A stretch of DNA of 64,000 bases from an uncultured Chloroflexia bacterium (GTDB lineage: Bacteria > Chloroflexota > Limnocylindria > Limnocylindrales > CSP1-4), in the NCBI GenBank assembly GCA_963721655.1, contig CAVRKH010000006.1:151986-215985 (forward strand), read 5' to 3'. Positions 32,154 through 34,800 of the stretch are shown here, piece after piece. Each line of letters opens with the position of its first letter. Position 1 is the first letter of the stretch. A program made the position numbers and the translations under genes. The notes beneath the pieces were generated by a model. It had not been told where the DNA came from, did no database searches, and saw only the letters and a list, made by a program, of their open reading frames with translations.

Positions 32154-34800
32154 ATGGCAGACCTGATCACGCGCCCTGACAGCCGCCCCGATCGCGCACC
32201 TGCCGCGTCGCCCGAATCGCTTGCCGAGCGCCTGCTCGACACGCAGGCGCCGCAGCGTCCGCAGTCGACGCCGCGCATCCGGATCGAGGTGGACGGGCGA
32301 GTCGTGGAGGGCTTCGAGGGCCAGACGATCCTCGAGGTCTGCCGCGACAACGGGATCGAGATCCCGACGCTGTGCTACGAGCCGAAGCTGCCCGGGTTCG
32401 GTGCCTGCCGGATGTGCGTCGTCGAGGTCGAGGGCGAGGAGCACCCGCCGATCAGCTGCTCCCGGACGTGCGAGCCGGGCATGAAGGTCGAGACGCAGAC
32501 CGACGAGATCCGTCGGTTGCGCCGCACGAACCTCGAGCTGATCTTCAGCGACCACAACGCGTACTGCCTGCCGCCGTGCCAGAACAAGTGCCCGAGCCAC
32601 ATCGACATCCCGGGCTTCCTCAAGGCCAACGCCGAGGCGGACTGGCGCGAGTCGACGCGCATCTTCAAGCGCACGATCCCCTTCCCCAGCGTGCTCGGCC
32701 GGGTGTGCCCCGCCCCGTGCGAGGAGCACTGCCGCCGGGACGAGGTCGACGAGGCGATCGCGATCCGCGACAGCCACCGCTACGCGGGCGACCAGGTGAT
32801 CATGTCGATGCTCGACGAGGGCGTCGATCCGCCGCTCCCGTACGAGCGCCAGGCGCCGACCGGCCGCAAGGCGGCGGTGATCGGATCAGGTCCTGCCGGC
32901 ATGGCCGCCGCCTACTACCTGCTGCTCGCGGGCCACGAGGTGACGGTCTTCGAGCGCGACCCGGCGCCCGGAGGGATGCTCCGCTACGGCATTCCCGCAG
33001 TACCGGCTGCCGAAGGTCGAGGTGCTCGAGGCCGAGTACGAATCGGTCACGCGGCTGGGCGGCACGGTCGTGTGCGATGCGGGCCTCGGACGGGACTTCA
33101 CCCTCGACGACCTGACCAACCAGGGCTTCGGCGCCGTCCTCGTGGCGATCGGCTGCTACGAAGTGAACAAGCTCGGAGTCCCCGGCGAGGACGCGGCCGA
33201 GGTGCTCGACGGCCTCGAGTACCTGCGGACCGCGACGCTCGGGCTGCCGTACCCGGAGCACGCCGGCAAGCGCGTCGTCGTCATCGGCGGCGGGTTCACC
33301 TCGATGGACTGCTCGCGGACCTCGGTCCGCCAGGGCGCCGCCGAGGTGACGCTCGTGTACCGCCGCGACATGAAGGACATGCCCGCTGCCAACGAAGTGC
33401 ACGAGGCGATCGAGGAAGGTGTGACCACCATCTTCCAGGCGGGCCCGGTACGCGTCGTCACCGACAAGGCCGGCAACGTGACCGGCGTCGAGTTCATCCG
33501 GATGCGCCCGGGCGAGCCCGATGCCTCGGGCCGGCGCCGGCCCGAGCCCGCCCCGGGGACCGAGTTCACGATCCCCTGCGATCGTGTCCTGCTCGCGATC
33601 GGCCAGGGGCCGGAGCTCGACTGGATCGAGCAGCCCGGCAACGAGGGCGTGACCGCGAAGCGCGCCAGGCTGGCCGCCGACGCGGTGACGTTCGAGACCG
33701 GCCGGACCGGCGTGTTCGGCACCGGGGACGTGCGGATCGGTGCCGCGACGGTGGTCCAGGCAATCGCCGAGGGCCGGCGCGCCGCGTACGCGGTCGACGC
33801 CCACCTTCGCGGGCTCGACCTGTCGGCGATCCGCACGCGCCAGACGCTCGCCGAACCGCAGCCCGAGTTCCTGTCGATCGTGCCCTTCACGAGCGAGGTG
33901 AAGGAATCGCGCTACCGGATGACGGCGATGCCCGCCGAGGTCCGCAACCAGAGCTACGTCGAGTACGAGCTGCCGTACACGCCCGAGGCCGCGATGGCCG
34001 AATCGACGCGCTGCCTGCAGTGCACGTGCGAGGCGATCGGCTTCTGCGACCTGCGCCGGCTCGGCATCGAGTACGGCACGACGCTCAAGACGCTCGAGCC
34101 GCAGTACCACCAGGGCGCCGGCTACCGCAGCGTCACCGAGAACCGCTTCACCGGCACGAACCACGACTACATCCGCGACGACTCCCACGCGTTCATCCTG
34201 CGCGAGCCGTCGCGCTGCATCGACTGCGGGCGCTGCGCCAACGTGTGCGCCGAGGTCGTCGGGGCCGCCTGCTACGACTTCATGCGGATCGGCTTCGACA
34301 CGCTCGTGACGACACCGCTCGACATGAGCCTCAACGACACCCCGTGCGTGTCGTGCGGCCGCTGCGCCGAGACGTGCCCGACCGGGGCGCTGATGCCGAA
34401 GCCGCGCGTGCTCGAGAAGTACGAGGTCGACGAGAGCCGCTGCATCCTGTGCGGCATCTGCGTCGACGCGTGCCCGTACGACGCGCTCCGCGACGGCGCC
34501 GACATCGAGCTCGCCCAGACCAGCCGCGAGGAGCCGATGATCGACCTCATGGCGATCGCGGCGATCGACCGCGAGACCGAGGTGACCTACATCCGGCGCG
34601 AGGCCGACTGGGCGACGCGGGCCGCAGCCGAGGGCCGCATCATCGACGCCGGGCGGCTGCTGCCGGTGCTCCCGGCGACGACCACCGGCCTGCCGTCGGG
34701 GAACGGCCATGGCGCCAACGGCAACGGCCACGCGGCGCTGGGCAGCGGACACGGAAACGGCGGGCATGGCGCCGGCGGCGGCCACGCCCACCCGAAGTAG
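32154..34800 (+). CDS. multidomain Fe-S flavoprotein: NuoG-type 2Fe-2S domain + GltD-like NAD(P)H:FAD oxidoreductase module + NuoG/HydA-type 4Fe-4S domains + His/Gly-rich tail; frame broken by one extra base near 32997
   Basis: - Fer2 domain: IEVDGRVVEGFEGQTILEVC...PTLCYEPKLPGFGACRMCVVEV.
- GltD N-terminal region: CLPPCQNKCPSHIDIPGFLK...FPSVLGRVCPAPCEEHC.
- Dinucleotide motifs: AAVIGSGPAGMAAAYYL and VVVIGGGFTSMDC.
- Cys motifs: CIDCGRCANVC, CVSCGRCAETCP and [12 protein letters not shown].
- The length of 2647 nt equals 3n+1.
- No molybdopterin-like domain is present. Confidence 0.75.

Follow-up and report, generated by a model that had tools for sequence, protein, structure and literature searches.

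We describe a complex I operon in a 64,000-nucleotide stretch of DNA, hereafter the window, from an uncultured Chloroflexia bacterium (GTDB lineage Chloroflexota; Limnocylindria; Limnocylindrales; CSP1-4; assembly GCA_963721655.1, contig CAVRKH010000006.1, positions 151,986 to 215,985). A gene in this operon encodes an 881-residue protein, here called G*, once one extra base is removed from the assembled sequence. It belongs to a cassette of E-, F- and G-like genes that lies within nuoI and divides NuoI into two halves, which are fused to the E-like protein and to G*. Sequence comparison indicates that this feature is real and conserved, and that it combines complex I with an Nfn-Bfu module. 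We propose, as a reading that has a good though not commanding chance of being correct, that G* is the large subunit of a noncanonical, hard-wired electron-input module of the Limnocylindria complex I, accepting electrons from NADPH via flavin adenine dinucleotide (FAD) and perhaps from NADH. The proton pump would then probably draw electrons from NADPH besides, or in place of, NADH. All evidence comes from sequence comparison and one predicted monomer structure, and the carriers are known from DNA alone. An earlier note on this DNA had described the gene as a NuoG-type N-terminus split by a GltD-like NAD(P)H/FAD module and lacking the molybdopterin-like domain. It was right about the architecture of G*; the larger anomaly, the split NuoI and a trimmed NuoF-like protein (F'), lies partly outside the gene it described.

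The operon reads nuoA-B-C-D-H-[I_N-E']-F'-[G*-I_C]-J-K-L-M-N (Table 1), with the cassette of ~4.3 kb in the order of stnABC and fused in frame to nuoI at both ends. The upstream fusion protein, I_N-E', matches the N-terminal half of NuoI/TYKY with the first CxxCxxCxxxCP motif only, and its residues 12-76 correspond to positions 1-64 of TIGR01971. At the other end of the cassette, G* runs on after CVSCGRCAETCPTGAL into NuoI-type sequence instead of a formate dehydrogenase (Fdh)-like domain; TIGR01971 is the top NCBIfam family for this fragment, with G* residues 751-796 matching positions 71-116 of 121. When the two NuoI halves were joined in silico, they aligned in one stretch with TYKY residues 23-148 (84.6 bits, E = 5e-23), compared with 49 bits for the N-terminal half alone; in this way the C-terminal 50 residues of G* and the upstream partner half jointly align with full-length TYKY. 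The two CxxCxxCxxxCP motifs consequently reside on separate polypeptides, one on I_N-E' and the other on G*. In the window, as in the cleaner related loci L001 (a 3.1-Mb contig), L002 and L084, the interval from nuoH to nuoJ holds no separate nuoI. To our knowledge, every complex I described so far has NuoI as one polypeptide, unlike the chain divided here between two proteins, and the split is more surprising than the G* architecture noted earlier. We infer that the halves reassemble the ferredoxin fold of clusters N6a and N6b on the Q-module; since they would have to do so, the input module would be docked by construction. Further along I_N-E', residues 117-186 match the helical domain with which NfnC, StnA and NuoE begin, including chain C of structure 9BOV, the NfnABC of Caldicellulosiruptor saccharolyticus (PMC11829005). 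The thioredoxin-like 2Fe-2S domain of NuoE is missing from I_N-E', which has no Cys outside the NuoI motif region.

The motifs of G* are not due to chance, as the profile matches have low E-values: Fer2_4 over residues 41-116 (E = 8.9e-21), Fer4_20 over 138-215 (4.7e-17), Pyr_redox_2 over 239-540 (4.6e-27) and 4Fe-4S models over 724-779 (Fer4, 1.1e-14). These matches corroborate two proposals of the earlier note, a NuoG/HydA-type 2Fe-2S N-terminus and a GltD-like insert with a 4Fe-4S region, two dinucleotide-binding motifs and GTGDV; the FAD and NADPH motifs, whose absence from profile searches the note would have taken as a refutation, lie in the Pyr_redox_2 match and, like the cluster motifs, are invariant in 68 species. 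Neither Pfam nor NCBIfam profiles found a molybdopterin-type domain in G*, as the note had also held. Similarity to NuoG itself is limited. G* scores 84.2 bits against TIGR01973 (NuoG; cut-off 470) and aligns with Nqo3 residues 116-286 (E = 1.5e-15), and only profile positions 1-17 of PF10588 (NADH-G_4Fe-4S_3, the His-ligated N5 cluster) match, at 20.1 bits against a 27-bit cut-off, just ahead of the GltD-like part. The best NCBIfam model, NF009454, reaches 543.7 bits over residues 42-701, below its 916-bit cut-off.

The closest solved structures are 9bov_A (NfnA, 1178 residues; E = 7e-153, collinear over 42-773 / 4-699), 8oh5_C (StnC of Sporomusa ovata StnABC, 1172 residues; 9e-140, 41-775 / 3-701) and 9n5u_A (NfnA, 963 residues; 2.5e-138, 38-571 / 6-517), and 9BOV is the best solved match of all three cassette proteins. 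In StnC, residues 1-101 form a 2Fe-2S domain and residues 102-565 a GltD/NfnB-like region with two [4Fe-4S] clusters, FAD and NADPH, followed by NuoG-type clusters and an inactive FdhF-like domain (683-1172), and electrons leaving FAD reach the NuoF-like subunit by way of the clusters (PMC10482914). G* shares with StnC and the NfnA of Bfu-type NfnABC (8OH5, 9BOV) this one-chain order, with ~730 residues of collinearity, and the partner genes of NuoE-like and NuoF-like type in the same E-F-G order. The insertion is thus no peculiarity of this gene; the combination of 2Fe-2S domain, GltD-like insert and HydA/NuoG-type clusters is the published StnC/NfnA architecture, and what is new is the C-terminus. 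The alignment stops at about residue 700 of the 1172-1178 residues of NfnA and StnC: unlike StnC, with its ~490-residue Fdh-like C-terminal domain and tetramer contacts, G* lacks the Fdh-like domain and carries the C-terminal half of NuoI instead. Two of the three C-terminal Cys motifs that the note had assigned to NuoG/HydA keep that assignment; for the third it was rejected in favour of the NuoI C-terminal half, on the TIGR01971 match and the TYKY alignment. The note's placing of a flavin site within the electron wire is sound, because the FAD/NADPH site of StnC and NfnA feeds the cluster chain in these solved homologues (PMC10482914, PMC11829005), although calling it a second site presupposes a working flavin mononucleotide (FMN) site in F'.

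Further differences separate G* from these soluble enzymes. It is encoded inside a complex I operon, and it has His208 where StnC/NfnA have Lys170, the FAD-proximal cluster ligand that is reported to be strictly conserved in StnC and is Glu in NfnB (PMC10482914). Six StnC-like proteins of ~810-850 residues (P0127, P0148, P0151, P0180, P0209 and P0212) all end in ...DHCARL; these are probably gene calls stopped at the selenocysteine TGA of true formate dehydrogenase domains, rather than short proteins resembling G*.

The flavoprotein F' is likewise closest to this family. Its match to 9BOV chain B (NfnB; 372 bits, E = 5.7e-110) ranks ahead of every NuoF chain, and StnB and HydB are also closer than any NuoF, the best of which is the mycobacterial one (307 bits), with Thermus Nqo1 at 256 bits. 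The GLRGRGGAG loop, the GAYMLGEETVLLKALEGKRGQP segment and NVQTLA are essentially invariant (57 Limnocylindria sequences), and two changes are fixed throughout the class: the NADE(S/G)EPG segment of NuoF is replaced by an invariant NGYGADP (31077-31121), and in the N3 motif (31842-31892) the second Cys has given way to Ser or Thr, while a new conserved Cys has appeared five residues before it. E95 and E97 of the former segment touch NADH via waters in Aquifex NuoF, and a peptide flip at E95 is coupled to the NuoE cluster N1a (PMC6560083); in Limnocylindria the N1a-type domain is gone and the E95/E97 segment is rewritten. F' may retain FMN binding and NADH oxidation.

Since its alignment is confined to residues 105-526 of the 584-residue Bfu-B chains, F' lacks the N- and C-terminal cluster domains of Bfu-B. 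The Limnocylindria module thus differs from the StnC/NfnA partners and from the Bfu family in having an E' without the C1 2Fe-2S cluster and an F' without the N-terminal thioredoxin-like and C-terminal 2x[4Fe-4S] domains. Because these parts are absent, the Bfu bifurcating core (PMC9304861, PMC11829005) is missing from the window version, which has lost every bifurcation-linked feature (the NfnC/NuoE 2Fe-2S cluster and both Bfu-B terminal cluster domains). In most Limnocylindria F', a CPA(G/R)VC remnant follows the N3 region (32110-32150 in the window) and looks like the beginning of the C-terminal domain that Bfu-B has and F' has lost.

The arrangement is widespread in Limnocylindria. When one genome per GTDB species was scanned, using the alignment of the fusion junction as query, at least 485 encoding stretches were found; the best 80, from which the locus statistics were drawn, are 88-98% identical and come from metagenome-assembled genomes (MAGs) of Chloroflexota or Limnocylindria, apart from a few that are labelled otherwise. 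Gene order is identical in every species-representative locus with enough flanking sequence. In 68 G* sequences, all presumptive cluster Cys are invariant, as are H134, His208, GSGPAG, GGGFTSMD, VYRRDMKDMPA and GTGD. G* has a median identity of 85% to its L001 orthologue, exceeded only by NuoD (88-89%), and F' is the least conserved subunit (67%). Outside the motifs, the tail of G* (34700-34797) is of low complexity, rich in His and Gly (GNGHGANGNGH...GGGHAHPK) and only poorly conserved between species (~35%). All carriers found are uncultured MAGs, and cluster look-ups yielded MAG records only.

A counterpart occurs in the Actinomycetota. P0138 is 44% identical to G* and has ~120 relatives of ~825 residues, all from MAGs and, where a source is named, from Thermoleophilia or Actinomycetota. 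Thermoleophilia operons have the same gene order and the same split NuoI. Their E protein (253 residues) keeps the 2Fe-2S domain, as in L002 and L084. Their F protein is a complete Bfu-B of 636-638 residues in which the motifs for FMN, NADH and N3 are canonical and a 2Fe-2S domain at the N-terminus is matched by a 2x[4Fe-4S] domain at the C-terminus; the module would thereby keep a complete flavobicluster and a ferredoxin-binding domain. A His at the Lys170 position is common to G* of both phyla and invariant in both lineages, and a rough neighbour-joining tree without support values groups the two sets of G* together. We infer that a full Nfn-Bfu module entered nuoI on one occasion and that the Limnocylindria module derives from it by reduction. 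Between them, the lineages make up a graded series, with the full Bfu core in Thermoleophilia and all bifurcation-linked parts stripped in Limnocylindria. In the P0138 sub-lineage, the second Rossmann/NADPH motif of G* is degraded (VVGDGFAAAEAC, without YRR; L002, 10001-12451) and the Bfu-B is fully canonical, the reverse of the Limnocylindria pattern.

Several known systems share parts of this design. Like NuoG/Nqo3, G* has a 2Fe-2S N-terminus, a ferredoxin-like 4Fe-4S domain and a slot after a nuoF-like gene; unlike NuoG, its N5-type motif is interrupted by ~480 residues of GltD-like sequence, it has no molybdopterin-like domain, and its gene follows nuoH and the nuoI N-terminal half rather than lying between nuoF and nuoH. 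It shares the Fer4_20 and Pyr_redox_2 core, with intact glycine motifs, with GltD, NfnB(L) and PRK12814-type "glutamate synthase small subunit-like" oxidoreductases, to which it adds the C-terminal clusters and the NuoI half. A Bfu-related E/F/G module in place of canonical NuoEFG amid a nuo cluster also characterises Nuo-Bfu, a complex with BfuABC instead of NuoEFG that Schut et al. (2022, PMC9304861) predicted for Deferribacteres, Proteobacteria, Planctomycetes and Nitrospirae. As portrayed in the sections of that paper on Nuo-Bfu, the complex has a full Bfu-B and no GltD/FAD domain, and those sections do not mention a split NuoI (PMC9304861); the window cassette, unlike the one described there, lies inside nuoI and not between nuoD and nuoH, and its F' lacks the family-defining Bfu-B domains. 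In Mbx-like operons, a GltD-related flavoprotein substitutes for NuoI (Degli Esposti 2015, PMC4758237). These complexes resemble the present one in placing a GltD-type NAD(P)H flavoprotein on a complex-I-like membrane enzyme at the NuoI position, whereas here NuoI is kept but split, and the flavoprotein belongs to the Stn/Nfn-Bfu type, has partners resembling NuoF and NuoE and is encoded in a genuine nuo operon. An Nfn-type cassette in a split nuoI was undescribed in the literature searched, which yielded only the Stn, Nfn and Bfu papers and the Mbx-like precedent.

Based on these homologies, we suggest that an Nfn/Stn-type (Bfu-family) cassette of E-like, F-like and GltD-containing G-like genes was inserted into nuoI, leaving the first half of NuoI as the N-terminus of the E-like protein and the second half as the C-terminus of G*, where it would replace the Fdh-like domain. 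NADPH would bind between the two Rossmann domains and pass a hydride to FAD in the GltD-like domain, if cofactor occupancy and NADPH preference follow those of the relatives. In the proposed direction of flow, single electrons could then move from FAD to the FAD-proximal [4Fe-4S] cluster with its putative His ligand, to the second GltD-type [4Fe-4S] cluster, and onward by way of the CLQC...C and 2Fe-2S clusters and those of HydA/NuoG type. With the assumed docking geometry, they would continue through N6a and N6b of the split NuoI to N2 in NuoB and to quinone, driving proton pumping. The quinone is probably menaquinone in these phyla. F' may still let NADH in through FMN and the re-ligated N3.

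Several points weigh against this proposal. The lineage is known from the sequences of uncultured MAGs alone, and the absence of nuoI concerns the operon only; these genomes may possess canonical nuoEFG or nuoI elsewhere. An AlphaFold2 monomer of the orthologue P0001, built on a 47-sequence alignment, is good for the GltD and 2Fe-2S parts; over residues 624-881 its predicted local distance difference test (pLDDT) is below 50, and the model is unreliable there and hence gives no structural backing to NuoI reassembly. Pfam dicluster models also cover G* motifs 2 and 3 (residues 724-778), and a different pairing of the Cys motifs is compatible with the sequence. A self-contained ferredoxin of motifs 2 and 3 is less likely, as motifs 1 and 2 form a pair in NfnA, StnC and HydA, and motif 3 and the upstream half align collinearly with NuoI. 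A preference for NADPH over NADH is suggested only by the retained YRR...MPA segment, which NADPH-using relatives have as well and whose arginines would contribute as in GltD-like enzymes. Finally, the proposed route would turn a branch that leads away from the 2Fe-2S cluster into the productive wire of G*, by analogy with the StnC/NfnA branch towards the Fdh-like domain, which is a dead end there (PMC10482914, PMC11829005).

An alternative that we consider unlikely, though deserving of attention, is that the GltD-like site is an electron exit, at which NADH oxidised by F', reverse flow from quinol driven by the proton-motive force, or both, would reduce NADP+; the cell would then have an NADPH generator or transhydrogenase linked to its respiratory chain. 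Transhydrogenation by the solved relatives is reversible, the C. saccharolyticus NfnABC being said to make NADPH in vivo (PMC11829005), and by homology one cluster chain connects the two flavin sites. However, F' evolves faster than any other subunit and has a rewritten NADH pocket, while coupling to the proton-motive force is hypothetical and sequence does not set the direction of flow. It is improbable that the GltD-like domain survives as a structural relic without catalytic activity, with NADH at F' as the sole electron entry. Relic domains are common in this family, such as the pterin-less Fdh-like domain of NuoG, StnC and NfnA, and the P0138/L002 sub-lineage of Thermoleophilia has its degraded second Rossmann motif, but in 68 Limnocylindria species all FAD, NAD(P)H and cluster motifs are invariant, and G* is more conserved than F'. 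More doubtful still is a soluble Stn/Nfn-like enzyme of E', F' and G*, merely co-encoded in the nuo operon and acting outside complex I: although the closest solved relatives are soluble, the two halves of NuoI, an essential subunit, are covalently fused to E' and G* with no other nuoI in the operon, the Fdh-like domain that mediates StnC/NfnA tetramerisation is missing, and the gene order is conserved across two phyla.

We give almost no credence to the possibilities that the gene is a pseudogene, that it is really two genes or that the assembly is chimeric here: the frame is indeed broken as assembled, yet by one base more than in all relatives, many orthologues are intact and full-length, and further essential nuo genes of the window show the same kind of break. 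In the window, which has a G+C content of ~70%, frame 0 is open from the ATG at 32154 through ...GGMLRYGIP, ending at base 32996, and the +1 frame takes over at 32998 (QYRLPKVEVLE) and stays open as far as the stop codon at 34798-34800. Where the window has GGCATTCCCGCAGTAC, the sequence of related loci is GGC ATC CCG CAG TAC, and deleting one base at 32992-32997 gives the continuous product with every motif listed in the earlier note, which had also flagged the extra base. More than 100 full-length relatives of 865-890 residues, 85-92% identical, emerged from a protein search as intact single open reading frames (ORFs), those with a named source being MAGs of Chloroflexota or Candidatus Limnocylindrales; among the 80 species-representative loci, G* is unbroken in all except three. 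As these relatives are single ORFs without the extra base, the break near 32997 is an assembly indel, and neither a gene boundary nor a programmed frameshift, both of which we rejected. This also disposes of the possibility, named in the note as one that would refute its reading, that the GltD-like part is a gene of its own.

Other breaks in the window affect nuoD (two compensating shifts near 28660 and 28715, within 28655-28720), nuoM (near 39146, within 39140-39160) and the methyltransferase gene upstream of nuoA, and point to a general indel problem in the assembly. At least one nuo gene is broken in 15 of the 80 related loci, 14 of them in "MFD" MAGs, which from their names we take to be long-read assemblies; this concentration and the other broken nuo genes were the grounds for rejecting a pseudogene. 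The ORFs at 54026-57976 and 60370-63090 also appear broken.

Table 1 Features of the operon in the window (positions are those of the window; aa, residues).
Feature	Position	Strand	Basis
nuoA, nuoB, nuoC, nuoD (two compensating breaks), nuoH	25950..30142	+	window ORFs
I_N-E', NuoI N-terminal half + NuoE/NfnC-like N-terminal helical domain, 224 aa	30139..30813	+	PDB, NCBIfam, alignment
I_N-E' aa 9-76, match to NuoI/TYKY N-terminal half	30163-30366		
I_N-E' aa 117-186, match to helical domain	30487-30696		
F', NuoF/Bfu-B-like flavoprotein core, 445 aa, VANGYGADP pocket, FCxxEACGK[S/T]IPC	30816..32153	+	PDB match, conservation
G*-I_C, StnC/NfnA-type large subunit + NuoI C-terminal half, 881 aa, one extra base as assembled	32154..34800	+	ORF, Pfam, NCBIfam, PDB, relatives
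Plant-type 2Fe-2S domain, Fer2_4, aa 41-116; motif PTLCYEPKLPGFGACRMC...SC; C74, C85, C88, C102 invariant	32274..32507	+	Pfam, conservation
GltD/NfnL-type region, two [4Fe-4S], Fer4_20; H134-x3-C138, His208	32547..32792	+	Pfam, PDB alignment, conservation
CLPPCQNKCP / GRVCPAPCEEHC motif	32547-32738		
His208, aligned to Lys170 cluster ligand of StnC/NfnA	within 32766-32792		
FAD + NAD(P)H Rossmann domains, Pyr_redox_2 aa 239-540: GSGPAG, GGGFTSMD, VYRRDMKDMPA, GTGD	32868..33774	+	Pfam, PDB alignment, conservation
First dinucleotide-binding motif VIGSGPAGMAAAYYL	32877-32921		
Extra-base site, ATTCCCG in the window, ATCCCG in relatives	32992..32997	+	comparison with related loci
Second dinucleotide-binding motif VVIGGGFTSMDC	33274-33312		
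GTGDV	inside 33709-33744		
CLQCTCEAIGFC, four-Cys motif 3' of the GltD insert, aligned with the equivalent NfnA/StnC Cys motif, invariant	34012..34047	+	PDB alignment, conservation
HydA/NuoG-type 4Fe-4S motif pair, CIDCGRCANVC ... CVSCGRCAETCP, 99% conserved	34216..34380	+	Pfam, PDB alignment, conservation
First motif of the pair	34216-34248		
Second motif of the pair	34345-34380		
NuoI C-terminal half, second CxxCxxCxxxCP motif + ...IELA..., in-frame fusion to G*	34405..34548	+	NCBIfam, TYKY alignment
Third Cys motif (NuoI half)	34441-34476		
C-terminal tail, conservation falling towards the end, His/Gly-rich	34549..34797	+	product sequence, conservation
nuoJ-nuoK-nuoL-nuoM-nuoN block	34803..40910	+	window ORFs
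nuoJ	34803-35402	+	
nuoK	35399-35725	+	
nuoL	35767-37752	+	
nuoM, break near 39146	37755-39414	+	
nuoN	39411-40910	+	

Directly 5' of nuoA lies a gene for a MidA/NDUFAF7-type S-adenosylmethionine (SAM) methyltransferase (24292-25600, +; frameshift near 24850), whose L001 orthologue carries PF02636; NDUFAF7 is a mitochondrial complex I assembly factor. Further upstream, an ORF at 21538-23043 (-) resembles by eye F420-dependent glucose-6-phosphate dehydrogenase or luciferase-like monooxygenase (LLM)-class oxidoreductases. Directly after nuoN, the ORF at 40911-42647 (+) is trehalose-6-phosphate-synthase-like by eye, and in L001 a trehalose phosphatase gene lies downstream of nuoN. No glutamate synthase large subunit gene was found near the G* gene.

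Databases name G* "FAD-dependent oxidoreductase", "formate dehydrogenase major subunit" or similar, and metabolic reconstructions would therefore score these genomes as being without NuoG, NuoI and NuoE. A Bfu-type module appears to have been recruited to complex I a second time and in a different place, inside nuoI, splitting an otherwise single-chain core subunit. Tentatively, and as a possibility to which we give slightly less than even weight, Limnocylindria and Thermoleophilia, abundant uncultured soil lineages, could have acquired the NADH module of complex I independently of canonical NuoEFG through this insertion, yielding a proton-pumping NADPH(+NADH):quinone oxidoreductase with a two-polypeptide NuoI; in Thermoleophilia, the module could link the oxidation of NADH, NADPH and ferredoxin to the reduction of quinone. 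The usual view of complex I is that of an NADH-specific enzyme, with 11-subunit relatives that are ferredoxin- or F420-linked. If our proposal for G* is true, the dead-end cluster branch of StnC and NfnA becomes a productive wire, and a naturally occurring complex I that has an NADPH/FAD entry site wired into it would represent a fourth donor class, providing these bacteria with a direct respiratory sink or source of NADPH, a role usually given to transhydrogenases.

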